Origin: Eledone cirrhosa
Taxonomy: Eukaryota
Length of the DNA: 64,000 nt
Assembly: GCA_964016885.1 (NCBI GenBank)
Contig: OZ024744.1
Location: 131,688,001-131,752,000, forward strand
Direction: 5' to 3'
Part shown: positions 2,126 to 59,699 of the stretch, piece after piece
Position numbering within the stretch: position 1 is the first letter of the stretch
How the letters are laid out: each line of letters begins with the position of its first letter
The notes under the pieces: generated by a model
Database searches by the model: none
Told to the model about the DNA's origin: nothing
The model's input: the letters and a program-made list of their open reading frames with translations, nothing else
Made by a program: the position numbers and the translations under genes

Positions 2126-2518
2126 AACCCCAACTTCACTCAACCCCACCTTAACTCAACCCCAACTTAACTTAACCCCAACTTCACTCAACCCCAACTT
2201 AACTCAACCCCAACTGAACTTAACCCCAACTTAACTTAACCCTAACTTAACTTAACCCCGACTTAACTTAACTTCGACTTAACTTAACCCCAACTTAACT
2301 TAACCCCAACTTAACTTAACCCCAACTTAACTTAACCACAAATTAAGTTAACCCCAACTTAAATTAACCCCAACTTAAATTAACCCCAACTTAACTTAAC
2401 CCCAACTTAACTTAACCCCAACTTAACTCACACCCAACTTAACTTACCCCCAACTTAACTTAACCCCAACTTGACTTAACCCAAACTTAACTTAACCCCA
2501 ACTTAACTTAACCCCAAA
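2126..2518 (-). repeat. Inverted satellite cassette 2 (393 bp)
   Basis: Left junction GGGGTT|AACCCC at 2125/2126; internal CTTCACTCAACCCCACC and AACTTCGAC; right junction CCCCAAA|TTCGGGG. Confidence 0.97.
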
Positions 2519-5265
2519 TTCGGGGTTAAGTTAAGTTGGGGTTAAGTTAAGTTAGGCTTAACTTAAGTTGGGGTTAAGTTAAGTTGGGGGTAAGTTAAGT
2601 TCTGGGTAAGTTAAGTTGGGGTTAAGTTGGGGTTAATTTAAGTTAGGGTTAAGTTAAGTTGGGGTTGAGTTAAGTTGGGGTTAAGTTAAGTTGGGGTTAA
2701 GTTAAGTTGGGGTCAAGTTAAGTTGGGGTTAAAATTAAGTTGGGGTTAAGTCAAGTTGGGGTTAAGTTAAGTTGGGGTTAATTTAGTTGGGGTTAAGTTA
2801 AGTTGGGGCTAAGTTAATTTGGGGCTAAGTTAAGTTGGGGCTAAGTTAAGTTGGGGTTAAGTTAAGTTGGGGTTAAGTTAAGTTGGGGTTAATTTAAATT
2901 GGGGTTAAGTTAACTTTGTGGTTAAGTTAAGTTGGGGTTAAGTTAAGTTGGGGCTAAGTTAAGTTGGGGTTAAGTTAAGTTGGGGTTAAGTTAAGTTGGG
3001 GTTGAGTTAAGTTGGGGTTGAGTGAAGTTGGGGTTAAGTTAAGTTGGGGTTAAGTTAAGTTGGCGTTAAGTTAAGTTGGGGTTGAGTTAAGTTGGGGTTG
3101 AGTTAATTTAGGGTTAAGTTAAGTTGGGGTTAAGTTAAGTTGGGTTTAAGTTAAGTTGGGGTTAAATTAAGTTGGGGTTAAATTAAGTTGGGGTTAAGTT
3201 AAGTTGGGGGTAAGTTAAGTTGGGGTTAAGTTAAGTTGGGGTTCAGTTAAGTTAGGGTTAAGTTAAGTTTGGGTTAAGTTGGGGTTAAATTAAGTTGGGG
3301 TTAAGTTAAGTTGGGGTTTAGTTAAGTTGGAGTTAAGTTAATTTGGGGTTAATTTAAGTTGGGGTTAAGTTAAGTTGGTGTTAAGTTAAGTGGTGGTTAT
3401 GTTAAGTTGGGGTTAAGTTAAGTTGGGGTTAATTTAAATTGGGGTTAAGTTAACTTTGTGGTTAAGTTAAGTTGGGGTTAAGTTAAGTTGGGGTTAAGTT
3501 AAGTTGGGGTTGAGTTAAGTTGGGGTTGAGTGAAGTTGGGGTTAAGTTAAGTTGGGGTTAATTTAAGTTGGGGTTAAGTTAAGTCGGGGTTAAGTTAAGT
3601 TGGGGTTGAGTTAAGTTGGGGTTGAGTTAAGTTGGGGTTGAGTTAATTTAGGGTTAAGTTAAGTTGGGGTTAAGTTAAGTTGGGTTTAAGTTAAGTTGGG
3701 GTTAAATTAAGTTGGGGTTAAGTTAAGTTGGGGGTAAGTTAAGTTGGGGGCAAGTTAAGTTGGGGTTCAGTTAAGTTGGGGTTAAATTAAGTTGGGGTTA
3801 AGTTTAGTTGGTGTTAAGTTAAGTTGGGGTTTATTTAAGTTGGGGTTAATTAAGTTGGGGTTAAGTTAAGTTGGGGTTAAGTTAAGTTGGGGTTAATTTA
3901 AGTTGGGGTTGAGTTAAGTTGGGGTTAAGTTAAGTTGGGTTTATATTAAGTTGGGGTTAAGTTAAGTTGGGGTTAAGTTAAGTTGGGGTTCAGTTAAGTT
4001 GCGGTTAAGTTAAGTTGGTGTTAAGTTAAGTTGGGGCTGAGTTAAGTTGGGGCTGAGTTAAGTTGGGGTTAAGTTAAGTTGGGGTTGAGTTAAGTTGGGG
4101 TTAAGTTAAGTTGGGGTTAAGTTAAGTTGGGGTTAAGTTAAGTTGGGGTTAAGTTAAGTTGGGGTTTAGTTAAGTTGGGGTTCAGTTAAGTTGGGGTTAA
4201 GTTAAGTTTGGGTTAAGTTGGGGTTAAATTAATTTGGGGTTAAGTTAAGTTGGGGTTTAGTTTAGTTGGGGTTAATTTAAGTTGGGGTTAAGTTAAGTTG
4301 CGGGTAATTTAAGTTGGGGTTAAGTTAAGTTGCGGTTAAGTTAAGTTGGGGTTAAGTTAAGTTGGGGTTAAGTTAAATTGGGGTTAAGTTAATTTGGGGT
4401 TGAGTTAAGTTGGGGTTAAGTTAAGTTGGGGTTATGTTAAGTTGGGGTTAATTTAAGTTGCGGTTAAGTTAAGTTGGGGTTAAGTTGGGGTTAAGTTAAG
4501 TGGTGGTTATGTTAAGTTGGGGTTAAGTTAAGTTGGGTTTAATTTAAATTGGGGTTAAGTTAACTTTGTGGTTAAGTTAAGTTGGGGCTAAATTAAGTTG
4601 GGGCTAAGTTAAGTTGGGGCTAAGTTAAGTTGGGGTTCAGTTAAGTTGGGGTTAAGTTAAGTTTGGGTTAAGTTGGGGTTAAATTAAGTTGGGGTTAAGT
4701 TAAGTTGGGGTTTAGTTAAGTTGGGGTTAAGTTAAGTTGGGGTTAATTTAAGTTGGGGTTAAGTTAAGTGGTGGTTATGTTAAGTTGGGGTTAAGTTAAG
4801 TTGGGGTTAATTTAAATTGGGGTTAAGTTAACTTTGTGGTTAAGTTAAGTTGGGGTTAAGTTAAGTTGGGGTTAAGTTAAGTTGGGGTTCAGTTAAGTTG
4901 CGGTTAAGTTAAGTTGCGGTTAAGTTAAGTTGGGGTTAATTTAAGTTGGGGTTAAGTTAAGTTGGGGTCAAGTTAAGCTGGGGTTAAGTTAAGTTGGGGT
5001 TAAGTTAAGTTGGTTAGTTAAGTTGAGTTTAAGTTAAGTTGGGGTTAATTTAAGTTGGGTTTAAGTTAAGTTGGGGTTAAGTTAAGTTGGGGTTAAGTTA
5101 AGTTGGGGTTAAGTTAATTTGGGGTTCAGTTAAGTTGGGGTTAAGTCAAGTTGGGATTAAGTTGGGGTTAAATTAATTTGGGGTTAAGTTAAGTTGGGGT
5201 TAAGTTAAGTTGGGGTTAAGTTAAGTTGGGGTTAAGTTAATTTGTGGTTAAGTTAAGTTGGGGTT

Positions 5266-5685
5266 AACCCCAACTTCACTCAACCCCACCTTAACTCAAC
5301 CCCAACTTAACTTAACCCCAACTTCACTCAACCCCAACTTAACTTAACCCCAACTTCACTCAACCCCAACTTAACTCAACCCCAACTTAACTTAACCCCA
5401 ACTTAACTTAACCCTAACTTAACTTAACCCCGACTTAACTTAACTTCGACTTAACTTAACCCCAACTTAACCCCAACTTAACTTAACCCCAACTTAACTT
5501 AACCACAAATTAACTTAACCCCAACTTAAATTAACCCCAACTTAAATTAACCACAACTTAACTTAACCCCAACTTAACTTAACCCCAATTTAACTCACAC
5601 CCAACTTAACTTACCCCCAACTTAACTTAACCCCAACTTGACTTAACCCAAACTTAACTTAACCCCAACTTAACTTAACCCCAAA
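5266..5685 (-). repeat. Inverted satellite cassette 3 (420 bp)
   Basis: Same junctions and diagnostic variants as cassette 2; contains one 11-bp monomer. Confidence 0.97.
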
Positions 5686-8058
5686 TTCGGGGTTAAGTTA
5701 AGTTGGGGTTCAGTTAAGTTAGGCTTAACTTAAGTTGGGGTTAAGTTAAGTTGGGGGTAAGTTAAGTTCTGGGTAAGTTAAGTTGGGGTTAATTTAAGTT
5801 GGGGTTAATTTAAGTTAAGGTTAAGTTAAGTTGGGGTTGAGTTAAGTTGGGGTTAAGTTAAGTTGGAGTTAAGTTAAGTTGGGGTCAAGTTAAGTTGGGG
5901 TTAAAATTAAGTTGGGGTTAAGTCAAGTTGGGGTTAAGTTAAGTTGGGGTTAATTTAGTTGGGGTTAAGTTAAGTTGGGGCTAAGTTAAGTTGGGGCTAA
6001 GTTAAGTTGGGGCTAAGTTAAGTTGGGGTTAATTTAAATTGGGGTTAAGTTAACTTTGTGGTTAAGTTAAGTTGGGGTTAAGTTAAGTTGGGGCTAAGTT
6101 AAGTTGGGGTTAAGTTAAGTTGGGGTTAAGTTAAGTTGGGGTTGAGTTAAGTTGGGGTTGAGTGAAGTTGGGGTTAAGTTAAGTTGGGGTTAAGTTAAGT
6201 TGGCGTTAAGTTAAGTTGGGGTTGAGTTAAGTTGGGGTTGAGTTAATTTAGGGTTAAGTTAAGTTGGGGTTAAGTTAAGTTGGGTTTAAGTTAAGTTGGG
6301 GTTAAATTAAGTTGGGGTTAAATTAAGTTGGGGTTAAGTTAAGTTGGGGCTAAGTTAAGTTGGGGTTAAGTTAAGTTGGGGTTAAGTTAAGTTGGGGTTA
6401 AGTTAAGTTGGGGTTAAGTTAAGTTGGGGGTAAGTTAAGTTGGGGGTAAGTTAAGTTGGGGTTAAGTTAAGTTGGGGTTAAGTTAAGTTAGGGTTAAGTT
6501 AAGTTGGGGTTGAGTTAAGTTGGGGTTAAGTTAAGTTGATGTTATGTTAAGTTGGGGTTAAGTTAAGTTGCGGTTAAGTTAAGTTGGGGTTAAGTTAAGT
6601 TGGGGTTAAGTTAAATTGGGGTTAAGTTAAGTTGGGGTTGAGTTAAGTTGGGGTTAAGTTAAGTTGGGGTTATGTTAAGTTGGGGTTAATTTAAGTTGCG
6701 GTTAAGTTAAGTTGGGGTTAAGTTGGGGTTAAGTTAAGTTGGGGTTAAGTTAAGTTGGGGTTGAGTTAAGTTGGGGTTGAGTGAAGTTGGGGTTAAGTTA
6801 AGTTGGGGTTAAGTTAAGTTGGCGTTAAGTTTAGTTGGTGTTAAGTTAAGTTGGGGTTTATTTAAGTTGGGGTTAAGTTAAGTTGGGGTTAAGTTAAGTT
6901 GGGTTTAAGTTAAGTTGGGGTTAAATTAAGTTGGGGTTAAATTAAGTTGGGGTTAAGTTAAGTTGGGGCTAAGTTAAGTTGGGGTTAAGTTAAGTTGGGG
7001 TTAAGTTAAGTTGGGGTTAAGTTAAGTTGGGGTTAAGTTAAGTTGGGGGTAAGTTAAGTTGGGGGTAAGTTAAGTTGGGGTTAAGTTAAGTTGGGGTTAA
7101 GTTAAGTTAGGGTTAAGTTAAGTTGGGGTTGAGTTAAGTTGGGGTTAAGTTAAGTTGATGTTATGTTAAGTTGGGGTTAAGTTAAGTTGCGGTTAAGTTA
7201 AGTTGGGGTTAAGTTAAGTTGGGGTTAAGTTAAATCGGGGTTAAGTTAAGTTGGGGTTGAGTTAAGTTGGGGTTAAGTTAAGTTGGGGTTATGTTAAGTT
7301 GGGGTTAATTTAAGTTGCGGTTAAGTTAAGTTGGGGTTAAGTTGGGGTTAAGTTAAGTGGTGGTTATGTTAAGTTGGGGTTAAGTTAAGTTGGGGTTAAT
7401 TTAAATTGGGGTTAAGTTAACTTTGTGGTTAAGTTAAGTTGGGGCTAAATTAAGTTGGGGCTAAGTTAAGTTGGGGCTAAGTTAAGTTGGGGTTCAGTTA
7501 AGTTGGGGTTAAGTTAAGTTTGGGTTAAGTTGGGGTTAAATTAAGTTGGGGTTAATTTAAGTTGGGGTTAAGTTAAGTGGTGGTTATGTTAAGTTGGGGT
7601 TAAGTTAAGTTGGAGTTAATTTAAATTGGGGTTAAGTTAACTTTGTGGTTAAGTTAAGTTGGGGTTAAGTTAAGTTGGGGTTAAGTTAAGTTGGGGTTCA
7701 GTTAAGTTGCGGTTAAGTTAAGTTGCGGTTAAGTTAAGTTGGGGTTAAGTTAAGTTGGGGTTAAGTTAAGTTGGGGTTAAGTTAAGTTGGTTAGTTAAGT
7801 TGAGTTTAAGTTAAGTTGGGGTTAATTTAAGTTGGGTTTAAGTTAAGTTGGGGTTAAGTTAAGTTGGGGTTAAGTTAAGTTGGGGTTAAGTTAATTTGGG
7901 GTTCAGTTAAGTTGGGGTTAAGTCAAGTTGGGGTTAAGTTGGGGTTAAATTAATTTGGGGTTAAGTTAAGTTGGGGTTAAGTTAAGTTGGGGTTAAGTTA
8001 AGTTGGGGTTAAGTTAAGTTGGGGTTAAGTTAATTTGTGGTTAAGTTAAGTTGGGTTT

Positions 8059-8451
8059 AACCCCAACTTCACTCAACCCCACCTTAACTCAACCCCAACT
8101 TAACTTAATCCCAACTTCACTCAACCCCAACTTAACTTAACCCCAACTTCACTCAACCCCAACTTAACTTAACCCCAACTTAACTTAACCCTAACTTAAC
8201 TTAACCCCGACTTAACTTAACTTCGACTTAACTTAACCCCAACTTAACTTAACCCCAACTTAACTTAACCCCAACTTAACTTAACCACAAATTAACTTAA
8301 CCCCAACTTAAATTAACCCCAACTTAAATTAACCCCAACTTAACTTAACCCCAACTTAACTTAACCCCAACTTAACTCACACCCAACTTAACTTACCCCC
8401 AACTTAACTTAACCCCAACTTGACTTAACCCCAACTTAACTTAACCCCAAA
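8059..8451 (-). repeat. Inverted satellite cassette 4 (393 bp)
   Basis: Left junction variant GGGTTT|AACCCC; carries the TTAATCCCAAC variant; standard right junction. Confidence 0.97.
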
Positions 8452-10482
8452 TTCGGGGTTAAGTTAAGTTGGGGTTAACTTAAGTTGGGGTTAATTTAAG
8501 TTGGGGTTAAGTTAAGTCGGGGTTAAGTTAAGTTAGGCTTAACTTAAGTTGGGGTTAAGTTAAGTTGGGGGTAAGTTAAGTTCTGGGTAAGTTAAGTTGG
8601 GGTTAAGTTAAGTTGGGGTTAAGTTGGAGTTAATTTAAGTTAGGGTTAAGTTAAGTTGGGGTTGAGTTAAGTTGGGGTTAAGTTAAGTTGGGGTTAAGTT
8701 AAGTTGGGGTCAAGTTAAGTTGGGGTTAAAATTAAGTTGGGGTTAAGTCAAGTTGGGGTTAAGTTAAGTTGGGGTTAATTTAGTTGGGGTTAAGTTAAGT
8801 TGGGGCTAAGTTAAGTTGGGGCTAAGTTAAGTTGGGGCTAAGTTAAGTTGGGGTTAAGTTAAGTTGGGGTTAAGTTAAGTTGGGGTTAATTTAAATTGGG
8901 GTTAAGTTAACTTTGTGGTTAAGTTAAGTTGGGGTTAAGTTAAGTTGGGGCTAAGTTAAGTTGGGGTTAAGTTAAGTTGGGGTTAAGTTAAGTTGGGGTT
9001 GAGTTAAGTTGGGGTTGAGTGAAGTTGGGGTTAAGTTAAGTTGGGGTTAAGATAAGTGGGGTTAAGTTAAGTTGGGGTTGAGTTAAGTTGGGGTTAAGTT
9101 AAGTTGGGGTTATGTTAAGTTGGGGTTAATTTAAGTTGCGGTTAAGTTAAGTTGGGGTTAAGTTGGGGTTAAGTTAAGTTGGGGTTAAGTTAAGTTGGGG
9201 TTGAGTTAAGTTGGGGTTGAGTGAAGTTGGGGTTAAGTTAAGTTGGGGTTAAGTTAAGTTGGCGTTAAGTTAAGTTGGGGTTGAGTTAATTTAGGGTTAA
9301 GTTAAGTTGGGGTTAAGTTAAGTTGGGTTTAAGTTAAGTTGGGGTTAAATTAAGTTGGGGTTAAATTAAGTTGGGGTTAAGTTAAGTTGGGGCTAAGTTA
9401 AGTTGGGGTTAAGTTAAGTTGGGGTTAAGTTAAGTTGGGGTTAAGTTAAGTTGGGGTTAAGTTAAGTTGGGGGTAAGTTAAGTTGGGGGTAAGTTAAGTT
9501 GGGGTTAAGTTAAGTTGGGGTTAAGTTAAGTTAGGGTTAAGTTAAGTTGGGGTTGAGTTAAGTTGGGGTTAAGTTAAGTTGATGTTATGTTAAGTTGGGG
9601 TTAAGTTAAGTTGCGGTTAAGTTAAGTTGGGGTTAAGTTAAGTTGGGGTTAAGTTAAATCGGGGTTAAGTTAAGTTGGGGTTGAGTTAAGTTGGGGTTAA
9701 GTTAAGTTGGGGTTATGTTAAGTTGGGGTTAATTTAAGTTGCGGTTAAGTTAAGTTGGGGTTAAGTTGGGGTTAAGTTAAGTGGTGGTTATGTTAAGTTG
9801 GGGTTAAGTTAAGTTGGGGTTAATTTAAATTGGGGTTAAGTTAACTTTGTGGTTAAGTTAAGTTGGGGCTAAATTAAGTTGGGGCTAAGTTAAGTTGGGG
9901 CTAAGTTAAGTTGGGGTTCAGTTAAGTTGGGGTTAAGTTAAGTTTGGGTTAAGTTGGGGTTAAATTAAGTTGGGGTTAATTTAAGTTGGGGTTAAGTTAA
10001 GTGGTGGTTATGTTAAGTTGGGGTTAAGTTAAGTTGGAGTTAATTTAAATTGGGGTTAAGTTAACTTTGTGGTTAAGTTAAGTTGGGGTTAAGTTAAGTT
10101 GGGGTTAAGTTAAGTTGGGGTTCAGTTAAGTTGCGGTTAAGTTAAGTTGCGGTTAAGTTAAGTTGGGGTTAAGTTAAGTTGGGGTTAAGTTAAGTTGGGG
10201 TTAAGTTAAGTTGGTTAGTTAAGTTGAGTTTAAGTTAAGTTGGGGTTAATTTAAGTTGGGTTTAAGTTAAGTTGGGGTTAAGTTAAGTTGGGGTTAAGTT
10301 AAGTTGGGGTTAAGTTAATTTGGGGTTCAGTTAAGTTGGGGTTAAGTCAAGTTGGGGTTAAGTTGGGGTTAAATTAATTTGGGGTTAAGTTAAGTTGGGG
10401 TTAAGTTAAGTTGGGGTTAAGTTAAGTTGGGGTTAAGTTAAGTTGGGGTTAAGTTAATTTGTGGTTAAGTTAAGTTGGGGTT

Positions 10483-10891
10483 AACCCCAACTTCACTCAA
10501 CCCCACCTTAACTCAACCCCAACTTAACTTAATCCCAACTTCACTCAACCCCAACTTAACTTAACCCCAACTTCACTCAACCCCAACTTAACTTAACCCC
10601 AACTTAACTTAACCCTAACTTAACTTAACCCCGACTTAACTTAACTTCGACTTAACTTAACCCCAACTTAACTTAACCCCAACTTAACTTAACCCCAACT
10701 TAACTTAACCACAAATTAACTCAACCCCAACTTAAATTAACCCCAACTTAAATTAACCCCAACTTAACTTAACCCCAACTTAACTTAACCCCAACTTAAC
10801 TCACACCCAACTTAACTTACCCCCAACTTAACTTAACCCCAACTTGACTTAACCCAAACTTAACTTAACCCCAACTTAACTTAACCCCAAA
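10483..10891 (-). repeat. Inverted satellite cassette 5 (409 bp)
   Basis: Standard junctions; TTAATCCCAAC variant shared with cassettes 4, 6 and 7. Confidence 0.97.
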
Positions 10892-13800
10892 TTCGGGGTT
10901 AAGTTAAGTTGGGGTTAACTTAAGTTGGGGTTAATTTAAGTTGGGGTTAAGTTAAGTCGGGGTTAAGTTAAGTTAGGCTTAATTTAAGTTGGGGTTAAGT
11001 TAAGTTGGGGGTAAGTTAAGTTCTGGGTAAGTTAAGTTGGGGTTAAGTTAAGTTGGGGTTAAGTTGGAGTTAATTTAAGTTAGGGTTAAGTTAAGTTGGG
11101 GTTGAGTTAAGTTGGGGTTAAGTTAAGTTGGGGTTAAGTTAAGTTGGGGTTAAGTTAAGTTGGGGTTAATTTAGTTGGGGCTAAGTTAAGTTGGGGCTAA
11201 GTTAAGTTGGGGCTAAGTTAAGTTGGGGCTAAGTTAAGTTGGGGTTAAGTTAAGTTGGGGTTAAGTTAAGTTGGGGTTAATTTAAATTGGGGTTAAGTTA
11301 ACTTTGTGGTTAAGTTAAGTTGGGGTTAAGTTAAGTTGGGGCTAAGTTAAGTTGGGGTTAAGTTAAGTTGGGGTTAAGTTAAGTTGGGGTTGAGTTAAGT
11401 TGGGGTTGAGTGAAGTTGGGGTTAAGTTAAGTTGGGGTTAAGATAAGTGGGCGTTAAGTTAAGTTGGGGTTGAGTTAAGTTGGGGTTGAGTTAATTTAGG
11501 GTTAAGTTAAGTTGGGGTTAAATTAAGTTGGGGTTAAATTAAGTTGGGGTTAATTTAAGTTGGGGGTAAGTTAAGTTGGGGTTAAGTTAAGTTGGGGTTC
11601 AGTTAAGTTAGGGTTAAGTTAAGTTTGGGTTAAGTTGGGGTTAAATTAAGTTGGGGTTAAGTTAAGTTGGGGTTTAGTTAAGTTGGAGTTAAGTTAAGTT
11701 GGGGTTAATTTAAGTTGGGGTTAAGTTAAGTCGGGGTTAAGTTAAGTTGGGGTTGAGTTAAGTTGGGGTTAATTTAAGTTGGGGCTAAGTTAATTTGTGG
11801 TTAAGTTAAGTTGGGGTTAAGTTAAGTTGGGGTTAAGTTAAGTTGGGGTTGAGTTAAGTTGGGGTTGAGTTAATTTAGGGTTAAGTTAAGTTGGGGTTAA
11901 GTTAAGTTGGGTTTAAGTTAAGTTGGGGTTAAATTAAGTTGGGGTTAAGTTAAGTTGGGGGTAAGTTAAGTTGGGGGCAAGTTAAGTTGGGGTTAAGTTA
12001 AGTTGGGGTTACATTAAGTTGGGGTTAAGTTTAGTTGGTGTTAAGTTAAGTTGGGGTTTATTTAAGTTGGGGTTAATTAAGTTGGGGTTAAGTTAAGTTG
12101 GGGTTAAGTTAAGTTGGGGTTAATTTAAGTTGGGGTTGAGTTAAGTTGGGGTTAAGTTAAGTTGGGTTTATATTAAGTTGGGGTTAAGTTAAGTTGGGGT
12201 TAAGTTAAGTTGGGGTTCAGTTAAGTTGCGGTTAAGTTAAGTTGGGGTTAAGTTAAGTTGGGGTTAAGTTAAGTTGGGGTTAAGTTAAGTTGGGGTTAAG
12301 TTAAGTTGGTGTTAAGTTAAGTTGGGGCTGAGTTAAGTTGGGGCTGAGTTAAGTTGGGGTTAAGTTAAGTTGGGGTTGAGTTAAGTTGGGGTTAAGTTAA
12401 GTTGGGGTTAAGTTAAGTTGGGGTTAAGTTAAGTTGGGGTTAAGTTAAGTTGGGGTTTAGTTAAGTTGGGGTTCAGTTAAGTTGGGGTTAAGTTAAGTTT
12501 GGGTTAAGTTGGGGTTAAATTAATTTGGGGTTAAGTTAAGTTGGGGTTTAGTTTAGTTGGGGTTAAGTTAAGTTGGGGTTAATTTAAGTTGGGGTTAAGT
12601 TAAGTTGCGGGTAATTTAAGTTGGGGTTAAGTTAAGTTGGGGTTAATTTAAGTTGGGGTTAAGTTAAGTTGGGGTTAAGTTAAGTTGGGGTTAAGTTAAG
12701 TTGGGGGAAAGTTAAGTTGGGGGTAAGTTAAGTTGGGGGTAAGTTAAGTTGGGGTTAAGTTAAGTTGGGGTTAAGTTAAGTTAGGGTTAAGTTAAGTTGG
12801 GGTTGAGTTAAGTTGGGGTTAAGTTAAGTTGGGGTTATGTTAAGCTGGGGTTAAGTTAAGTTGCGGTTAAGTTAAGTTGGGGTTAAGTTAAGTTGGGGTT
12901 AAGTTAAATTGGGGTTAAGTTAAGTTGGGGTTGAGTTAAGTTGGGGTTAAATTAAGTTGGGGTTATGTTAAGTTGGGGTTAAGTTAAGTTGCGGTTAAGT
13001 TAAGTTGGGGTTAAGTTGGGGTTAAGTTAAGTGGTGGTTATGTTAAGTTGGGGTTAAGTTAAGTTGGGGTTAATTTAAATTGGGGTTAAGTTAACTTTGT
13101 GGTTAAGTTAAGTTGGGGCTAAATTAAGTTGGGGCTAAGTTAAGTTGGGGTTAAGTTAAGTTTGGGTTAAGTTGGGGTTAAATTAAGTTGGGGTTAAGTT
13201 AAGTTGGGGTTTAGTTAAGTTGGGGTTAAGTTAAGTTGGGGTTAAATTAAGTTGGGGTTAAGTTAAGTTGGGGTTAAGTTAAGTGGTGGTTATGTTAAGT
13301 TGGGGTTAAGTTAAGTTGGGGTTAATTTAAATTGGGGTTAAGTTAACTTTGTGGTTAAGTTAAGTTGGGGTTAAGTTAAGTTGGGGTTAAGTTAAGTTGG
13401 GGTTCAGTTAAGTTGCGGTTAAGTTAAGCTGGGGTTAAGTTAAGTTGGGGTTAAGTTAAGTTGGTTAGTTAAGTTGAGTTTAAGTTAAGTTGGGGTTAAT
13501 TTAAGTTGGGTTTAAGTTAAGTTGGGGTTGAGTTAAGTTGGGGTTGAGTTAAATTGGGGTGGAGTTAAGTTGGGGTTGAGTTAAGTTGGTGTTGAGTTAA
13601 GTTGGGGTTAAGTTAAGTTGGGGTTAAGTTAAGTTGCAGTTAAGTTGAGGTTAAGTTAAGTAGGGGTTAAGTTAAGTTGTGGTTAAGTTAAGTTGGGGCT
13701 AAGTTAAGTTGGGGCTAAGTTAAGTTGGGGCTAAGATAAGTTGGGGTTCAGTCAAGTTGGGGTTAAGTTAATTTGGGTTAATTTGGGGTTAAATTAAGTT

Positions 13801-16800: not shown

Positions 16801-17576
16801 TAAGTTAATTTGGGGTTAAGTTAAGTTGGGGTTCAGTTAAGTTGGGGTTAAGTTAAGTTGGGGTTAAGATGGGGTTAAATTAAGTTGGGGTTAAGTTAAG
16901 TTGGGGTTAAGTTAAGTTGGGGTTAAGTTAAGTCGGGGTTAAGTTAAGTTAGGGTTAAGTTAAGTTGGAGTTAAGTTAAGTTGGGGTTGAGTTAAGTTGG
17001 GGTTGAGTTAAATTGGGGTGGAGTTAAGTTGGGGTTGAGTTAAGTTGGTGTTGAGTTATGTTGGGGTTAAGTTAAGTTGGGGTTAAGTTAAGTTGCAGTT
17101 AAGTTAAGTTGAGGTTAAGTTAAGTTGGGGTTAAGTTAAGTTGGGGTTAAGTTAAGTTGGGGCTAAGTTAAGTTGGGGCTAAGTTAAGTTGGGGCTAAGT
17201 TAAGTTGGGGTTCAGTTAAGTTGGGGTTAAGTTAAGTTTGGGTTAAGTTGGGGTTAAATTAAGTTGGGGTTAAGTTAAGTTGGGGTTTAGTTAAGTTGGG
17301 GTTAAGTTAAGTTGGGGTTAATTTAAGTTGGGGTTAAGTTAAGTTGGGGTTAGGTTAAGTGGTGGTTATGTTAAGTTGGGGTTAAGTTAAGTTGGGGTTA
17401 ATTTAAATTGGGGTTAAGTTAACTTTGTGGATAAGTTAAGTTGGGGTTAAGTTAAGTTGGGGTTAAGTTAAGTTGGGGTTGAGTTAAGTTGGGGTTAAGT
17501 TAAGTTGGGGTTAAGTTAAGTTGGGGTTAAGTTAAGTTGGGGTTAAGTTAATTTGTGGTTAAGTTAAGTTGGGTTT

Positions 17577-17969
17577 AACCCCAACTTCACTCAACCCCAC
17601 CTTAACTCAACCCCAACTTAACTTAATCCCAACTTCACTCAACCCCAACTTAACTTAACCCCAACTTCACTCAACCCCAACTTAACTTAACCCCAACTTA
17701 ACTTAACCCTAACTTAACTTAACCCCGACTTAACTTAACTTCGACTTAACTTAACCCCAACTTAACTTAACCCCAACTTAACTTAACCCCAACTTAACTT
17801 AACCACAAATTAACTTAACCCCAACTTAAATTAACCCCAACTTAAATTAACCCCAACTTAACTTAACCCCAACTTAACTTAACCCCAACTTAACTCACAC
17901 CCAACTTAACTTACCCCCAACTTAACTTAACCCCAACTTGACTTAACCCCAACTTAACTTAACCCCAAA
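17577..17969 (-). repeat. Inverted satellite cassette 6 (393 bp; duplicate of cassette 4)
   Basis: Same GGGTTT|AACCCC variant as cassette 4, at offset 9518. Confidence 0.97.
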
Positions 17970-47001: not shown

Positions 47002-47425
47002 AACCCCAACTTCACTCAACCCCACCTTAACTCAACCCCAACTTAACTTAACCCCAACTTCACTCAACCCCAACTTAACTTAACCCCAACTTCACTCAAC
47101 CCCAACTTAACTCAAACCCAACTTAACTTAACCCCAACTTAACTTAACCCTAACTTAACTTAACCCCGCTTAACTTAACTTCGACTTAACTTAACCCCAA
47201 CTTAACTTAACCCCATTTTAACTTAACCCCAACTTAACTTAACCACAAATTAACTTAACCCCAACTTAAATTAACCCCAACTTAAATTAACCCCAACTTA
47301 ACTTAACCCCAACTTAACTTAACCCCAACTTAACTCACACCCAACTTAACTTACCCCCAACTTAACTTAACCCCAACTTGACGTAACCCCAACTTAACTT
47401 AACCCCAACTTAACTTAACCCCAAA
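47002..47425 (-). repeat. Inverted satellite cassette 11 (424 bp; sister of cassette 10)
   Basis: Shares the variants of cassette 10 and the upstream TTTGTGA; offset 5563. Confidence 0.97.
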
Positions 47426-49839: not shown

Positions 49840-52480
49840 AGTTAAGTTGGGGTTGAGTTAAGTTGGGGTTAAGTTAAGTTGGGGTTAAGTTAAGTTGGGG
49901 TTAAGTTAAGTTGGGGTTAAGTTAAGTTGGGGTTTAGTTAAGTTGGGGTTCAGTTAAGTTGGGGTTAAGTTAAGTTTAGGTTAAGTTGGGGTTAAATTAA
50001 TTTGGGGTTAAGTTAAGTTGGGGTTTAGTTAAGTTGGGGTTAAGTTAAGTTGGGGTTAATTTAAGTTGGGGTTAAGTTAAGTTGCGGGTAATTTAAGTTA
50101 GGGTTAAGTTAAGTTGGGGTTAAGTTAAGTTGGGGTTAAGTTAAGTTGGGGTTAAGTTAAGTTGGGGGTAAGTTAAGTTGGGCGTAAGTTAAGTTGGGGG
50201 TAAGTTAAGTTGGGGTTAAGTTAAGTTGGGGTTAAGTTAAGTTAGGGTTAAGTTAAGTTGGGGTTGAGTTAAATTGGGGTTAAGTTAAGTTGGGGTTATG
50301 TTAAGTTGGGGTTAAGTTAAGTTGCGGTTAAGTTAAGTTGGGGTTAAGTTAAGTTGGGGTTAATTTAAATTGGGGTTAAGTTAAGTTGGGGTTAAGTTAA
50401 GTTGGGGTTAAGTTAAGTTGGGGTTAAGTTAGATTGTGGTTAAGTTAAGTTGGGGTTAAGTTAAGTTGGGGTTAAGTTAAGTTGGGGTTAAGTTAAGGCG
50501 GGGTTAAGTTGAGTTGGTGTTAAGTTAAGTTGGGGTTAAGTTAAGTTGGGGTTGAGTTAATTTTGGGTTAACTTAAGTTGGGGGTACTTAAGTTGGGTTT
50601 AAGTTAAGTGGGGTTAAGTTAAGTTCGGGTTAAGTTAAGTTGGGGTTAAGTTAAGTTGGGATTAAGTTAGGTTGTGGTTAAGTTAAGTTGGGGGTAAGTT
50701 AAGTTGGGGGTAAGTTAAGTTGGGGTTAATTTAAGTTGGGTCTAATTAAGTTGGGGTTAAGTTAAGTTGGGGTTAAGTTAAGTTGGGGTTGAGTTAATTT
50801 GGGGTTAACTTAAGTTGGGGGTACTTAAGTTGGGGTTAAGTTAAGTTGGGGTTAAGTTAAGTGGTGGTTATGTTAAGTTGGGGTTAAGTTAAGTTGGGGT
50901 TAATTTAAATTGGGGTTAAGTTAACTTTGTGGTTAAGTTAAGTTGGGGTTAAGTTAAGTTGGGGTTAAGTTAAGTTGGGGTTCAGTTAAGTTGCGGTTAA
51001 GTTAAGTTGGGGTTAAGTTAAGTTGGGGTCAAGTTAAGCTGGGGTTAAGTTAAGTTGGGGTTAAGTTAGGTTGGTTAGTTAAGTTGAGTTTTAGTTAAGT
51101 TGGGGTTAATTTAAGTTGGGTTTAAGTTAAGTTGGGGTTAAGTTAAGTTGGGGTTAAGTTAAGTTGGGGTTGAGTTAAGTTGGGGTTAAGTTAAGTTGGG
51201 GTTAAGTTAAGTTGGGGTTAAGTTAAGTTGGGGTTAAGTTAAGTTGGGGTTTAGTTAAGTTGGGGTTCAGTTAAGTTGGGGTTAAGTTAAGTTTAGGTTA
51301 AGTTGGGGTTAAATTAATTTGGGGTTAAGTTAAGTTGGGGTTTAGTTAAGTTGGGGTTAAGTTAAGTTGGGGTTAATTTAAGTTGGGGTTAAGTTAAGTT
51401 GCGGGTAATTTAAGTTAGGGTTAAGTTAAGTTGGGGTTAAGTTAAGTTGGGGTTAAGTTAAGTTGGGGTTAAGTTAAGTTGGGGGTAAGTTAAGTTGGGA
51501 GTAAGTTAAGTTGGGGGTAAGTTAAGTTGGGGTTAAGTTAAGTTGGGGTTAAGTTAAGTTAGGGTTAAGTTAAGTTGGGGTTGAGTTAAATTGGGGTTAA
51601 GTTAAGTTGGGGTTATGTTAAGTTGGGGTTAAGTTAAGTTGCGGTTAAGTTAAGTTGGGGTTAAGTTAAGTTGGGGTTAATTTAAATTGGGGTTAAGTTA
51701 AGTTGGGGTTAAGTTAAGTTGGGGTTAAGTTAAGTTGGGGTTAAGTTAGATTGTGGTTAAGTTAAGTTGGGGTTAAGTTAAGTTGGGGTTAAGTTAAGTT
51801 GGGGTTAAGTTAAGGCGGGGTTAAGTTGAGTTGGTGTTAAGTTAAGTTGGGGTTAAGTTAAGTTGGGGTTGAGTTAATTTTGGGTTAACTTAAGTTGGGG
51901 GTACTTAAGTTGGGTTTAAGTTAAGTGGGGTTAAGTTAAGTTCGGGTTAAGTTAAGTTGGGGTTAAGTTAAGTTGGGATTAAGTTAGGTTGTGGTTAAGT
52001 TAAGTTGGGGGTAAGTTAAGTTGGGGGTAAGTTAAGTTGGGGTTAATTTAAGTTGGGTCTAATTAAGTTGGGGTTAAGTTAAGTTGGGGTTAAGTTAAGT
52101 TGGGGTTGAGTTAATTTGGGGCTAACTTAAGTTGGGGGTACTTAAGTTGGGGTTAAGTTAAGTTGGGGTTAAGTTAAGTGGTGGTTATGTTAAGTTGGGG
52201 TTAAGTTAAGTTGGGGTTAATTTAAATTGGGGTTAAGTTAACTTTGTGGTTAAGTTAAGTTGGGGTTAAGTTAAGTTGGGGTTAAGTTAAGTTGGGGTTC
52301 AGTTAAGTTGCGGTTAAGTTAAGTTGGGGTTAAGTTAAGTTGGGGTCAAGTTAAGCTGGGGTTAAGTTAAGTTGGGGTTAAGTTAGGTTGGTTAGTTAAG
52401 TTGAGTTTTAGTTAAGTTGGGGTTAATTTAAGTTGGGTTTAAGTTAAGTTGGGGTTAAGTTAAGTTGGGGTTAAGTTAAG
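49840..52480 (+). repeat. 1317-bp tandem duplication
   Basis: TTCGGG variant at 50626 and 51943, with the same order of flanking variants; boundaries approximate. Confidence 0.8.
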
Positions 52481-52643
52481 TTGGGGTTAAGTTAATTTGG
52501 GGTTCAGTTAAGTTGGGGTTAAGTCAAGTTGGGGTTAAGTTGGGGTTAAATTAATTTGGGGTTAAGTTAAGTTGGGGTTAAGTTATGTTGGGGTTAAGTT
52601 AAGTTGGGGTTAAGTTAATTTGTGGTTAAGTTAAGTTGGGGTT

Positions 52644-53068
52644 AACCCCAACTTCACTCAACCCCACCTTAACTCAACCCCAACTTAACTTAACCCCAAC
52701 TTCACTCAACCCCAACTTAACTTAACCCCAACTTCACTCAACCCCAACTTAACTCAAACCCAACTTAACTTAACCCCAACTTAACTTAACCTTAACTTAA
52801 CTTAACCCCGACTTAACTTAACTTCGACTTAACTTAACCCCAACTTAACTTAACCCCAACTTAACTTAACCCCAACTTAACTTAACCACAAATTAACTTA
52901 ACCCCAACTTAAATTAACCCCAACTTAAATTAACCCCAACTTAACTTAACCCCAACTTAACTTAACCCCAACTTAACTCACACCCAACTTAACTTACCCC
53001 CAACTTAACTTAACCCCAACTTGACTTAACCCCAACTTAACTTAACCCCAACTTAACTTAACCCCAAA
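52644..53068 (-). repeat. Inverted satellite cassette 12 (425 bp)
   Basis: Standard junctions; CTCAAACCC and AACCTTAAC variants; downstream TTATGGCT. Confidence 0.97.
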
Positions 53069-54699
53069 TTCGGGGTTAAGTTAAGTTGGGGTTAAGTTAA
53101 GTTAGGCTTAACTTAAGTTGGGGTTAAGTTAAGTTGGGGGTAAGTTAAGTTCTGGGTAAGTTAAGTTGGGGTTAAGTTAAGTTGGGGTTAAGTTGGGGTT
53201 AAGTTAAGTTAGGGTTAAGTTAAGTTGGGGTTGAGTTAAGTTGGGGTTAAGTTAAGTTGGGGTTAAGTTAAGTTGGGGTCAAGTTAAGTTGGGGTTAAAA
53301 TTAAGTTGGGGTTAAGTCAAGTTGGGGTTAAGTTAAGTTGGGGTTAATTTAGTTGGGGTTAAGTTAAGTTGGGGCTAAGTTAAGTTGGGGCTAAGTTAAG
53401 TTATGGCTAAGTTAAGTTGGGGTTAAGTTAAGTTGGGGTTAAGTTAAGTTGGGGTTAATTTAAATTGGGGTTAAGTTAACTTTGTGGTTAAGTTAAGTTG
53501 GGGTTAAGTTAAGTTGGGGTTAAGTTAAGTTGGGGTTGAGTTAAGTTGGGGTTGAGTGAAGTTGGGGTTAAGTTAAGTTGGGGTTAAGTTAAGTTGGCGT
53601 TAAGTTAAGTTGGGGTTGAGTTAAGTTGGGGTTGAGTTAATTTAGGGTTAAGTTAAGTTGGGGTTAAGTTAAGTTGGGTTTAAATTAAGTTGGGGTTAAA
53701 TTAAGTTGGGGTAAATTTAAGTTGGGGGTAAGTTAAGTTGGGGTTAAGTTAAGTTGGGGTTAAGTTAAGTTGGGGTTAAGTTAAGTTGGGGTTAAGTTAA
53801 GTTGGGGTCAAGTTAAGTTGGGGTTAAAATTAAGTTGGGGTTTAGTTAAGTTGGGGTTCAGTTAAGTTGGGGTTAAGTTAAGTTTAGGTTAAGTTGCGGT
53901 TAAATTAATTTGGGGTTAAGTTAAGTTGGGGTTTAGTTAAGTTGGGGTTAAGTTAAGTTGGGGTTAATTTAAGTTGGGGTTAAGTTAAGTTGCGGGTAAT
54001 TTAAGTTGGGGTTAAGTTAAGTTGGGGTTAAGTTAAGTTGGGGTTAAGTTAAGTTGGGGGTAAGTTAAGTTGGGGGTAAGTTAAGTTGGGGGTAAGTTAA
54101 GTTGGGGTTAAGTTAAGTTGGGGTTAAGTTAAGTTAGGGTTAAGTTAAGTTGGGGTTGAGTTAAGTTGGGGTTAAGTTAAGTTGGGATTATGTTAAGTTG
54201 GGGTTAAGTTAAATTGGGGTTAAGTTAAGTTGGGGTTAAGTTAAGTTGGGGTTAAGTTAAGTTGGGGTTAAGTTAGATTGTGGTAAAGTTAAGTTGGGGT
54301 TAAGTTAAGTTGGGGTTAATTTAAGTTGGGGTTAAGTTAAGGCGGGGTTAAGTTGAGTTGGTGTTAAGTTAAGTTGGGGTTAAGTTAAGTTGGGGTTGAG
54401 TTAATTTTGGGTTAACTTAAGTTGGGGCTACTTAAGTTGGGTTTAAGTTAAGTGGGGTTAAGTTAAGTTGGGGTTAAGTTAAGTTGGGGTTTAGTTAAGT
54501 TGGGGTTAAGTTAGGTTGTGGTTAAGTTAAGTTGGGGGTAAGTTAAGTTGGGGGTAAGTTAAGTTGGGGTTAATTTAAGTTGGGTCTAATTAAGTTGGGG
54601 TTAAGTTAAGTTGGGGTTAAGTAAAGTTGGGGTTGAGTTAAGTTGGGGTTAATTTAAGTTGGGGCTAAGTTAATTTGTGGTTAAGTTAAGTTGGGGTTA

Positions 54700-56690
54700 A
54701 GTTAAGTTGGGGTTAAGTTAAGTTGGGGCTGAGTTAAGTTGGGGTTGAGTTAATTTAGGGTTAAGTTAAGTTGGGGTTAAGTTAAGTTGGGTTTAAGTTA
54801 AGTTGGGGTTAACTTAAGTTGGGGTTAAGTTAAGTTGGGGGTAAGTTAAGTTGGGGGCAAGTTAAGTTGGGGTTAAGTTAAGTTGGGGTTAAATTAAGTT
54901 GGGGTTAAGTTAAGTTGGTGTTAAGTTAAGTTGGGGTTTATTTAAGTTGGGGTTAATTAAGTTGGGGTTAAGTTTAGTTGGGGTTAAGTTAAGTTGGGGT
55001 TAATTTAAGTTGGGGTTGAGTTAAGTTGGGGTTAAGTTAAGTTGGGGTTAAGTTAAGTTGGGGTCAAGTTAAGTTGGGGTTAAAATTAAGTTGGGGTTTA
55101 GTTAAGTTGGGGTTCAGTTAAGTTGGGGTTAAGTTAAGTTTAGGTTAAGTTGGGGTTAAATTAATTTGGGGTTAAGTTAAGTTGGGGTTTAGTTAAGTTG
55201 GGGTTAAGTTAAGTTGGGGTTAATTTAAGTTGGGGTTAAGTTAAGTTGCGGGTAATTTAAGTTGGGGTTAAGTTAAGTTGGGGTTAAGTTAAGTTGGGGT
55301 TAAGTTAAGTTGGGGTTAAGTTAAGTTGGGGGTAAGTTAAGTTGGGGGTAAGTTAAGTTGGGGGTAAGTTAAGTTGGGGTTAAGTTAAGTTGGGGTTAAG
55401 TTAAGTTAGGGTTAAGTTAAGTTGGGGTTGAGTTAAGTTGGGGTTAAGTTAAGTTGGGGTTATGTTAAGTTGAGGTTAAGTTAAGTTGCGGTTAAGTTAA
55501 GTTGGGGTTAAGTTAAGTTGGGGTTAAGTTAAATTGGGGTTAAGTTAAGTTGGGGTTAAGTTAAGTTGGGGTTAAGTTAAGTTGGGGTTAAGTTAGATTG
55601 TGGTTAAGTTAAGTTGGGGTTAAGTTAAGTTGGGGTTAAGTTAAGGCGGGGTTAAGTTAAGGCGGGGTTAAGTTGAGTTGGTGTTAAGTTAAGTTGGGGT
55701 TAAGTTAAGTTGGGGCTGAGTTAAGTTGGGGTTGAGTTAATTTAGGGTTAAGTTAAGTTGGGGTTAAGTTAAGTTGGGTTTAAGTTAAGTTGGGGTTAAC
55801 TTAAGTTGGGGTTAAGTTAAGTTGGGGGTAAGTTAAGTTGGGGGCAAGTTAAGTTGGGGTTAAGTTAAGTTGGGGTTAAATTAAGTTGGGGTTAAGTTAA
55901 GTTGGTGTTAAGTTAAGTTGGGGTTTATTTAAGTTGGGGTTAATTAAGTTGGGGTTAAGTTTAGTTGGGGTTAAGTTAAGTTGGGGTTAATTTAAGTTGG
56001 GGTTGAGTTAAGTTGGGGTTAAGTTAAGTTGGGGTTAAGTTAAGTTGGGGTCAAGTTAAGTTGGGGTTAAAATTAAGTTGGGGTTTAGTTAAGTTGGGGT
56101 TCAGTTAAGTTGGGGTTAAGTTAAGTTTAGGTTAAGTTGGGGTTAAATTAATTTGGGGTTAAGTTAAGTTGGGGTTTAGTTAAGTTGGGGTTAAGTTAAG
56201 TTGGGGTTAATTTAAGTTGGGGTTAAGTTAAGTTGCGGGTAATTTAAGTTGGGGTTAAGTTAAGTTGGGGTTAAGTTAAGTTGGGGTTAAGTTAAGTTGG
56301 GGTTAAGTTAAGTTGGGGGTAAGTTAAGTTGGGGGTAAGTTAAGTTGGGGGTAAGTTAAGTTGGGGTTAAGTTAAGTTGGGGTTAAGTTAAGTTAGGGTT
56401 AAGTTAAGTTGGGGTTGAGTTAAGTTGGGGTTAAGTTAAGTTGGGGTTATGTTAAGTTGAGGTTAAGTTAAGTTGCGGTTAAGTTAAGTTGGGGTTAAGT
56501 TAAGTTGGGGTTAAGTTAAATTGGGGTTAAGTTAAGTTGGGGTTAAGTTAAGTTGGGGTTAAGTTAAGTTGGGGTTAAGTTAGATTGTGGTTAAGTTAAG
56601 TTGGGGTTAAGTTAAGTTGGGGTTAAGTTAAGGCGGGGTTAAGTTAAGGCGGGGTTAAGTTGAGTTGGTGTTAAGTTAAGTTGGGGTTAA
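54700..56690 (+). repeat. 987-bp tandem duplication
   Basis: GGGGTTAACTT at 54813/55800 and TTGAGG at 55473/56460, both offset 987; boundaries approximate. Confidence 0.82.
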
Positions 56691-59274
56691 GTTAAGTTGG
56701 GGTTGAGTTAATTTTGGGTTAACTTAAGTTGGGGGTACTTAAGTTGGGTTTAAGTTAAGTGGGGTTAAGTTAAGTTGGGGTTAAGTTAAGTTGGGGTTAA
56801 GTTAAGTTGGGGTTAAGTTAGGTTGTGGTTAAGTTAAGTTGGGGGTAAGTTAAGTTGGGGGTAAGTTAAGTTGGGGTTAATTTAAGTTGGGTCTAATTAA
56901 GTTGGGGTTAAGTTAAGTTGGGGTTAAGTTAAGTTGGGGTTGAGTTAAGTTGGTGTTAATTTAAGTTGGGGCTAAGTTAATTTGTGGTTAAGTTAAGTTG
57001 GGGTTAAGTTAAGTTGGGGTTAAGTTAAGTTGGGGCTGAGTTAAGTTGGGGTTGAGTTAATTTAGGGTTAAGTTAAGTTGGGGTTAAGTTAAGTTGGGTT
57101 TAAGTTAAGTTGGGGTTAAATTAAGTTGGGGTTAAGTTAAGTTGGGGGTAAGTTAAGTGGGGCTAAGTTAAGTTGGGGCTAAGTTAAGTTGGGGCTGAGT
57201 TAAGTTGGGGTTAAGTTAAGTTGGGGTTAAGTTAAGTTGGGGTTAAGTTAGGTTGTGGTTAAGTTAAGTTGGGGGTAAGTTAAGTTGGGGATAAGTTAAG
57301 TTGGGGTTAATTTAAGTTGGGTCTAATTAAGTTGGGGTTAAGTTAAGTTGGGGTTAAGTTAAGTTGGGATTGAGTTAAGTTGGGGTTAATTTAAGTTGGG
57401 GCTAAGTTAATTTGTGGTTAAGTTAAGTTGGGGTTAAGTTAAGTTGGGGTTAATTTAAGTTGGGGGTAAGTTAAGTTGGGGGCAAGTTAAGATGGGGTTA
57501 AGTTAAGTTGGGGTTAAATTAAGTTGGGGTTAAGTTAAGTTGGTGTTAAGTTAAGTTGGGGTTGAGTTAAGTTGGGGTTAAGTTAAGTTGGGTTTATATT
57601 AAGTTGGGGTTAAGTTAAGTTGGGGTTAAGTTAAGTTGGGGTTCAGTTAAGTTGCGGTTAATTTAAGTTGGGGTTAAGTTAAGTTGGGGTTAAGTTAAGT
57701 TGGGGTTAAGTTAAGTTGGGGTTAAGTTAAGTTGGTGTTAAGTTAAGTTGGGGCTAAGTTAAGTTGGGGCTGAGTTAAGTTGGGGCTGAGTTAAGTTGGG
57801 GTTAAGTTAAGTTGGGGTTGAGTTAAGTTGGGGTTAAGTTAAGTTGGGGTTAAGTTGAGTTGGGGTTAAGTTAAGTTGGGGTTTAGTTAAGTTGGGGTTC
57901 AGTTAAGTTGGGGTTAAGTTAAGTTTAGGTTAAGTTGGGGTTAAATTAATTTGGGGTTAAGTTAAGTTGGGGTTTAGTTAAGTTGGGGTTAAGTTAAGTT
58001 GGGGTTAATTTAAGTTGGGGTTAAGTTAAGTTGCGGGTAATTTAAGTTAGGGTTAAGTTAAATTGGGGTTAAGTTAAGTTGGGGTTAAGTTAAGTTGGGG
58101 TTAAGTTAAGTTGGGGGTAAGTTAAGTTGGGGGTAAGTTAAGTTGGGGGTAAGTTAAGTTGGGGTTAAGTTAAGTTGGGGTTAAGTTAAGTTAGGGTTAA
58201 GTTAAGTTGGGGTTGAGTTAAATTGGGGTTAAGTTAAGTTGGGGTTATGTTAAGTTGGGGTTAAGTTAAGTTGCGGTTAAGTTAAGTTGGGGTTAAGTTA
58301 AGTTGGGGTTAAGTTAAATTGGGGTTAAGTTAAGTTGGGGTTAAGTTAAGTTGGGGTTAAGTTAAGTTGGGGTTAAGTTAGATTGTGGTTAAGTTAAGTT
58401 GGGGTTAAGTTAAGTTGGGGTTAAGTTAAGTTGGGGTTAAGTTAAGGCGGGGTTAAGTTGAGTTGGTGTTAAGTTAAGTTGGGGTTAAGTTAAGTTGGGG
58501 TTGAGTTAATTTTGGGTTAACTTAAGTTGGGGGTACTTAAGTTGGGTTTAAGTTAAGTGGGGTTAAGTTAAGTTGGGGTTAAGTTAAGTTGGGGTTAAGT
58601 TAAGTTGGGATTAAGTTAGGTTGTGGTTAAGTTAAGTTGGGGGTAAGTTAAGTTGGGGGTAAGTTAAGTTGGGGTTAATTTAAGTTGGGTCTAATTAAGT
58701 TGGGGTTAAGTTAAGTTGGGGTTAAGTTAAGTTGGGGTTGAGTTAATTTGGGGTTAACTTAAGTTGGGGGTACTTAAGTTGGGGTTAAGTTAAGTTGGGG
58801 TTAAGTTAAGTGGTGGTTATGTTAAGTTGGGGTTAAGTTAAGTTGGGGTTAATTTAAATTGGGGTTAAGTTAACTTTGTGGTTAAGTTAAGTTGGGGTTA
58901 AGTTAAGTTGGGGTTAAGTTAAGTTGGGGTTCAGTTAAGTTGCGGTTAAGTTAAGTTGGGGTTAAGTTAAGTTGGGGTCAAGTTAAGCTGGGGTTAAGTT
59001 AAGTTCGGGTTAAGTTAGGTTGGTTAGTTAAGTTGAGTTTTAGTTAAGTTGGGGTTAATTTAAGTTGGGTTTAAGTTAAGTTGGGGTTAAGTTAAGTTGG
59101 GGTTAAGTTAAGTTGGGGTTAAGTTAATTTGGGGTTCAGTTAAGTTGGGGTTAAGTCAAGTTGGGGTTAAGTTGGGGTTAAATTAATTTGGGGTAAGTTA
59201 AGTTGGGGTTAAGTTAAGTTGGGGTTAAGTTAAGTTGGGGTTAAGTTAATTTGTGGTTAAGTTAAGTTGGGGTT

Positions 59275-59699
59275 AACCCCAACTTCACTCAACCCCACCT
59301 TAACTCAACCCCAATTTAACTTAACCCCAACTTCACTCAACCCCAACTTAACTTAACCCCAACTTCACTCAACCCCAACTTAACTCAAACCCAACTTAAC
59401 TTAACCCCAACTTAACTTAACCTTAACTTAACTTAACCCCGACTTAACTTAACTTCGACTTAACTTAACCCCAACTTAACTTAACCCCAACTTAACTTAA
59501 CCCCAACTTAACTTAACCACAAATTAACTTAACCCCAACTTAAATTAACCCCAACTTAAATTAACCCCAACTTAACTTAACCCCAACTTAACTTAACCCC
59601 AACTTAACTCACACCCAACTTAACTTACCCCCAACTTAACTTAACCCCAACTTGACTTAACCCCAACTTAACTTAACCCCAACTTAACTTAACCCCAAA
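59275..59699 (-). repeat. Inverted satellite cassette 13 (425 bp; sister of cassette 12)
   Basis: Shares CTCAAACCC, AACCTTAAC and downstream TTATGGCT with cassette 12. Confidence 0.97.

Follow-up and report, generated by a model that had tools for sequence, protein, structure and literature searches.

A satellite array of Eledone cirrhosa that otherwise keeps one orientation repeatedly switches strand over short, similar segments, which raises the question of whether these inverted cassettes arose once or many times, and whether their retention reflects a function. The window (the whole stretch of DNA analysed, 64,000 bp at G000:C28:131.688–131.752 Mb) had been the subject of a preliminary description, which read its stereotyped flips as a single ancestral inversion amplified together with the array and allowed for a structural role or active amplification. 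Our analysis identifies a single origin with passive spread as the most likely explanation of the cassettes. We consider it probable that one old flip at the monomer's TTAA was followed by passive copying through the local duplications that build the array.

Inverted cassettes within the window

The window consists throughout of one 16-bp satellite with the consensus GGGGTTAAGTTAAGTT, in ~4,000 monomers. Each monomer contains two TTAA, and the G-rich strand is the majority orientation. Orientation scoring of the window recovered exactly 13 C-rich segments in the G-rich array (12 complete and one cut at the window start), the number of stereotyped flips claimed earlier. The features are listed below, with a slash at the strand switch.

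1..64000, + strand: 16-bp satellite array GGGGTTAAGTTAAGTT, part of a ~8.3 Mb array on G000:C28, about 127.0–135.3 Mb
1..162, − strand: right-hand part of an inverted cassette that is truncated at the window start and measures 332 bp in full
2120..2131, no strand: left joint GGGGTT/AACCCC (type example), a palindrome centred on the monomer's first TTAA
2126..2518, − strand: inverted cassette, 393 bp
2512..2525, no strand: right joint CCCCAAATTCGGGG (type example), lacking the 14 central bases of the palindrome that a clean inversion would give
5266..5685, − strand: inverted cassette, 420 bp
7964..27078, + strand: recent tandem duplication of ~9.5 kb, with identities of 99.97% and 99.96% at offsets 9518 and 9582
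8059..8451, − strand: inverted cassette, 393 bp
10483..10891, − strand: inverted cassette, 409 bp
17577..17969, − strand: inverted cassette, 393 bp, duplicate of 8059–8451
20001..20409, − strand: inverted cassette, 409 bp, duplicate of 10483–10891
30805..31229, − strand: inverted cassette, 425 bp
32793..33056, − strand: inverted cassette with internal deletion, 264 bp
41439..41862, − strand: inverted cassette, 424 bp
47002..47425, − strand: inverted cassette, 424 bp
52644..53068, − strand: inverted cassette, 425 bp
59275..59699, − strand: inverted cassette, 425 bp

Measured from the left TT/AA to the right AA/TT, the 12 complete lengths reproduce those given earlier exactly, as do the spacings between right joints (2356, 3167, 2766, 2440, 7078, 2440, 10820, 1827, 8806, 5563, 5643 and 6631 bp). 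The observation that most lengths equal 16n+9 holds for 8 of 12 and follows from the right joint being a TTAA palindrome without 14 bp. The shared breakpoints were likewise recovered: the right joint CCCCAAATTCGGGG occurs in all 13 copies, and the left joint GGGGTTAACCCC is matched perfectly by 9 of the 12 complete copies and differs by a single base in the other three. The internal variants CCCCACC, CCCCG and AACTTCGAC are present in 12/12 on the + strand. Regarding the flanks that had been described as shared, TTAGGC accompanies 12 of 13 copies, but TTTGTGG fails as a cassette marker: it is a common array variant with 77 copies in the window and reads TTTGTGA in 2/12 cassette copies. Outside the type example, the right joint also takes the forms AAAGTC, AAAATC and AAAGCC. 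A 22-mer joint yielded 92 matches, against 0 for its reversed control, which excludes chance.

The cassettes consist of satellite monomers only and have no non-satellite core, terminal repeats or target-site duplication of the kind that defines a transposon or foldback element. Orientation changes directly between monomers of one satellite, without a foreign spacer. The tandem duplication at 7964..27078 copied two cassettes in one step.

Presence of the joints in sequencing reads

The possibility that the joints are sequencing or assembly artefacts, arising from fold-back reads or from ligation at TTAA/AATT, draws on their coincidence with TTAA and AATT-like words, which are cut sites of common enzymes. 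It also draws on the low-quality contig ends and gaps present in the array, and on RAD reads of two other samples, 76–95% of which are chimeric. However, both joints are bridged by contigs from public short-read runs: the left by a 105-bp contig of run X1 at depth 251, and the right by contigs of X1 (depth 1464) and X2 (depth 1041). These bridging contigs are short and come from one sample, possibly the assembled individual. Furthermore, the cassette is not a mirror image of its flank, private cassette variants diverge in nested subfamilies over megabases, and the commonest cassette relatives read AAAGTC, without AATT. The RAD reads themselves, being mostly chimeric, add little; 27 in X12 and 10 in X13 cross the right joint (at position 2519), and the AAAGTC variant, which AATT ligation cannot produce, appears in only 4 reads from 2 starts in X12, a weak signal. 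The artefact explanation is largely refuted, and we regard it as extremely improbable.

A single cassette family on C28

A genome-wide search with the 23-base left joint gave 773 exact matches on the forward strand and 690 on the reverse (palindromic ones are counted twice), which corresponds to at least 773 exact left joints; allowing for mismatched joints, we estimate about a thousand cassettes. Among the matches listed, all lie in the ~8 Mb C28 array or in a 0.1-Mb block near it, and none lies on C1–C27 apart from three different joints on C18. Complete listings place window-type joints (92/92) and insert joints (32/32) on C28. Within 974 kb of C28 satellite, a sample partly chosen at known joint matches, all 380 strand switches belong to two joint types (185 left, 195 right). 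Few joint types in many near-identical copies thus characterize the array, with two further single joints in targeted loci.

The right joint occurs in 18 point-variant forms sorted by region, and cassette lengths range from 108 to 526 bp. Variant order within cassettes is common to subfamilies, which are nested, and the family persists over about 5 Mb and in every subfamily there. These shared joints and shared variants rule out thirteen independent inversion events. The reading as a single ancestral inversion amplified with the array is therefore supported, for a family far larger than the window shows; on sequence comparison, the cassettes likely descend from one event, followed by point change and by monomer gain and loss.

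The preliminary description had also proposed comparing cassette density elsewhere. Cassettes are abundant in the C28 array, but about 3.2 Mb of this same array contains no exact left joint, and 11/11 loci sampled there show no switch. The matches listed include no left joint from 124.69 to 130.25 Mb, although the array itself already starts near 127.0 Mb. The arrays sampled on C2 and C3 are likewise free of cassettes (1/1 and 3/3 satellite loci). Among the matches listed, the same inversion sites were not found on non-homologous chromosomes, and the C18 joint differs. A locus at 129.0 Mb (L032) was considered as a pre-inversion allele and proved uninformative; both flank markers are present there, but not around a cassette-like segment.

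Birth of the joints

By monomer arithmetic, a clean flip at the first TTAA predicts a 28-bp palindrome on the right, and the observed joint is that palindrome minus its 14 central bases, with one substitution. Loss of the tip is a recognised outcome at palindromes, and short inverted microhomology at the joint is typical of short template-switch mutations, which are one-off events in unique DNA. One old strand flip at the monomer's self-complementary TTAA would account for both joints. Microhomology at TTAA may have given rise to that flip, either by inversion in place or by template switching, and the right palindrome would have shed the 14 bp at its tip then or, equally possibly, afterwards.

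A forward copy of the C28 cassette was not found among majority-strand segments (62,683 monomers counted, the contiguous block being represented by its first ~7,000 aligned); the best scores were 14.6–17.4, compared with 11.2–18.8 for shuffled sequence, and only a partial old motif exceeded the shuffles. With no forward donor in this sample, in-place inversion and template switch are indistinguishable. A fold-back of the present upstream flank was also considered, but no sign of one was seen; at offset 0 the mirror score averaged 0.36. The only resemblance between the C28 cassette and its adjacent flank is a two-variant in-register echo at the right joint.

An independent element on C18 measures 144 bp (9 × 16) and has both joints as perfect TTAA palindromes. 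It is present in three copies:

G000:C18:10,129,113 (L061): C18 fold-back copy
G000:C18:10,132,213 (L062): C18 fold-back copy
G000:C18:10,188,789 (L064): C18 fold-back copy

Its variants mirror the upstream flank with a score of 18.3, compared with 10.7–14.5 for shuffled sequence, and by this pattern it is a fold-back inverted duplication of that flank. With both joints at TTAA, it shows that the proposed birth route recurs. Two more single joints on C28 both lie at the second TTAA. The birth of a joint is thus visible at base level, and joints mark later flips.

All five intact joint types or instances are symmetric about TTAA, which would also be expected if the first joint had come not from microhomology pairing but from a break with a TTAA overhang, such as piggyBac-type excision leaves, that was joined to a sister end. 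The available part of one account (PMC7351741) describes piggyBac as using TTAA and hairpin intermediates, in line with such a break. However, no transposon remnant was seen at any joint, and TTAA is the monomer's only self-complementary word. We consider an overhang origin very unlikely; it bears on birth only and leaves the account of spread as it is.

Spread through the array

That array duplications spread the cassettes is evident from the 9.5-kb duplication in the window and from repeated blocks of cassettes elsewhere. A contiguous stretch of 434 kb contains 81 cassettes 0.7–12.3 kb apart, and its last 103 kb has none, so that spacing ranges from 0.7 kb to over 100 kb. In the same 434 kb, 34 old variant markers have 2–419 copies, with a median of 97.5, and 21 of them reach 81 or more, in a census that is not fully independent because linkage to the cassette, or possible recurrence, affects some of the markers. 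Seven downstream markers stand without their cassette, which has been lost.

The modal length accounts for 50/81 cassettes and for 48/76 and 22/81 of the flanking forward intervals in the 434 kb. The perfect left arm has a mode of 11 bp there (47/80 joints) and a median of 14 elsewhere, against a null median of 13. Perfect stem length therefore matches that of random joins, and cassette length is no more fixed than that of the flanking intervals. Across the arms, 13.4 of 96 pairs are mismatched on average. The local duplications by which the array grows would copy the cassettes passively, and survival would be favoured by arms about 14% mismatched and by same-direction duplications and deletions between monomers, which would handle a cassette as one block.

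A further process seen in the array is replacement by an AT-rich insert (18% GC, tandem ~36-bp units, up to 2.7 kb), which takes the place of the left joint and half the cassette in 32 copies:

L026:3250-5917 and 32 places on C28 (132.11–132.78 Mb, 124.63 Mb): AT-rich insert, amplified with the array

The values observed for cassette number, spacing CV and length spread fall within the range of a neutral simulation, although its density is partly built in because its parameters were chosen arbitrarily. Most runs, however, lose the cassette (survival in 46/105, 29/118 and 37/120).

Hairpins could, alternatively, drive their own amplification by stalling replication forks, with repair by break-induced replication duplicating the cassette and its flanks; out-of-register break-induced repair is described as a route of array expansion in the available text of 10.1101/731430. 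Cassettes do participate in rearrangements, and jump breakpoints within 10 monomers of them slightly exceed expectation in one direction (13 observed, 9.3 expected). However, the other direction is flat (10 vs 10.1), and inside cassettes the counts are 15 vs 13.2 and 7 vs 14.2, so that duplication breakpoints are not enriched beside cassettes. Moreover, the cassette count lies below the old-marker median, and long cassette-free expansions exist. Self-driven amplification appears quite unlikely.

Strong folding is predicted at both joints (−46 and −50 kcal/mol for 120-nt segments, compared with −7 and −5). Selection might accordingly keep the cassettes as hairpin or cruciform sites, either for (peri)centromeric chromatin organisation or for hairpin RNA in silencing, a hypothesis of the kind proposed for Tribolium macro-dyads in the accessible part of PMC13081366. 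The strong predicted stems at both joints, the persistence over about 5 Mb and the mid-chromosome arrays on C2 and C3, which may be centromeric DNA, are consistent with selection. On the other hand, neither 3.2 Mb of the C28 array nor the sampled C2 and C3 arrays carry cassettes, no exact joint occurs on C1–C27 among the matches listed, spacing is irregular, the left joint is replaced in 32 copies, and stems are no longer than the null. We judge selection of this kind unlikely.

The earlier suggestion of a structural role or active amplification is unsupported, given an ordinary count, flat breakpoints, irregular spacing and 3.2 Mb without cassettes. Confinement to a local block at hitchhiking density, which the preliminary description had named as evidence against a function, largely describes what was found. 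Weak selection or drive may nevertheless be compatible with persistence over ~5 Mb and with the finding that no sampled cassette exceeds 526 bp.

Later rearrangements at cassettes

The premise that long inverted repeats are unstable is weakened here because the arms are imperfect, at about 14% mismatch, but the cassettes are not inert, since they sit at later rearrangement joints. The available text of PMC7999016 relates palindrome risk positively to arm identity and negatively to spacer length. Cassettes comprise 7.9% of monomers, and cassette homology was found at later joints at 131.32, 132.86 and 133.36 Mb. A reversed block of 2.5 kb at 131.32 Mb has its two ends concealed in cassette-direction homology; about 15 cassette monomers are missing there. 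Another reversed block, of 2 kb at 132.857 Mb, ends at a cassette on one side and at a new TTAA on the other. A third case is a C-rich domain of at least 560 kb that ends at 133.355 Mb, where the sequence becomes G-rich again two monomers into a cassette; the other end of the domain lies in a gap.

Variants crossed the left joint in three cases, into the cassette at 131,492,139 and into the flanks in L009 and L004/L005, one to two monomers off mirror register. The donor at 131,492,139 resembles the usual flank rather than that copy's own, so that pairing within one molecule is no more than a possibility there. By supplying homology in the opposite direction, a cassette could permit later inversions, inverted insertions and conversions without a new joint, as a by-product. 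It is possible, and we propose only tentatively, that cassettes act as orientation adaptors through which blocks from kilobases to half a megabase flip or insert inverted by ordinary homology, with variants exchanged with the mirror flank. If so, the rate of inversion in (peri)centromeric arrays, and their strand architecture, would be governed by such cassettes. The putative secondary flips and conversions comprise few events in one assembly.

On C28, the G-rich sequences before a first switch at 131,964,574 and after a second at 133,355,372 are neighbours in one higher-order motif, as if one long inverted block lay between them, an interval that includes two gaps.

Comparison with known systems

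Available portions of PMC13081366 and PMC12581902 report thousands of conserved inversion sites and "cassettes" in Tribolium satellites, with a structural role hypothesised without experiment. Like the macro-dyads of Tribolium madens and T. freemani in these accounts, the E. cirrhosa array repeats a few stereotyped joints many times over in near-identical form with no foreign spacer, and it has predicted hairpins and a "cassette" frame with variable monomer number. The Tribolium subarrays, as described there, are multi-kb and roughly symmetric, have long monomers, lie on several or all chromosomes and have a proposed function. In contrast, the E. cirrhosa cassette is a patch of 0.1–0.5 kb in which a 16-bp monomer runs on the minority strand; its two joints have been inherited as a pair, it lies on one chromosome among the matches listed, and its statistics are neutral-like.

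Human HSat3B5 (chr9) and beta-satellite arrays resemble the C28 array in that a simple satellite changes orientation hundreds of times, over 200 according to the part of 10.1101/2021.07.12.452052 available to us. Their number scales with array length and is interpreted as a by-product of expansion in the accessible text of 10.64898/2026.07.22.740206. The passages available neither trace these switches to one inherited joint pair nor describe one as homology for later inversions, although the supplements may do so. The cassettes thus work like the switch systems of Tribolium and human satellites but differ from macro-dyads in size (108–526 bp against kb-long opposite arms, rather than several-kb, near-symmetric inverted subarrays) and in multi-chromosome occurrence.

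Fold-back inverted duplications carry short inverted microhomology at the joint (PMC3907307, in the part available), and the C18 element resembles them as a direct mirror copy of its upstream flank. Those duplications are described there as one-off events in unique DNA, whereas the C28 cassette has no surviving mirror donor and has been amplified about a thousandfold by our estimate. Conserved inversion sites in Tribolium satellites were read as signs of a structural role, and the C28 array provides an internal control: about a thousand (estimated) near-identical joints show no sign of selection, and conservation alone is therefore not evidence of function.

The array and its surroundings

The left edge of the C28 array falls at 126.91–127.0 Mb and the right edge at 135.31–135.35 Mb. 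Monomers of the GGGGTTAAGTTAAGTT type also occur mid-chromosome on C2 and C3, and on C18; the mid-chromosome position of the C2 and C3 arrays suggests that the satellite is (peri)centromeric. Because this single assembly has 200-N gaps in C28 (124.69, 131.99 and 132.79 Mb), large-scale block order on C28 is uncertain. The monomer resembles TTAGG-type telomeric motifs. No telomere repeat was found in 250-base heads and tails of contig ends. A literature text search for the monomer sequence gave no match, and one on 16-bp satellites returned nothing related. The G strand of the window has a G4 run every 16 bases with 12-base loops, which makes it a candidate weak G-quadruplex former.

Low-complexity, apparently low-quality contig ends lie beside 200-N gaps at L031:3743-5200 and C28 ~131.985–131.987 Mb and include a short AACCT-like repeat. 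Two gap-bounded blocks, at 124.60–124.69 Mb (L042–L047) and 131.99–132.79 Mb, have a common subfamily and the AT-rich insert; they lie 7 Mb apart in opposite directions, possibly through scaffolding misplacement. On C2 at 209.30 Mb (L019), a composite unit of ~520 bp comprises about 16 satellite monomers and a ~270-bp non-satellite segment, to which non-satellite sequence at C28 125.5 Mb (the start of L052) is similar. At C28 ~124.598–124.600 Mb (L041:8200-9690), a block ends in half a cassette abutting older degenerate G-rich satellite of the same direction, whose TTAAG/CTAAG pentamers may represent a relative of the 16-mer.
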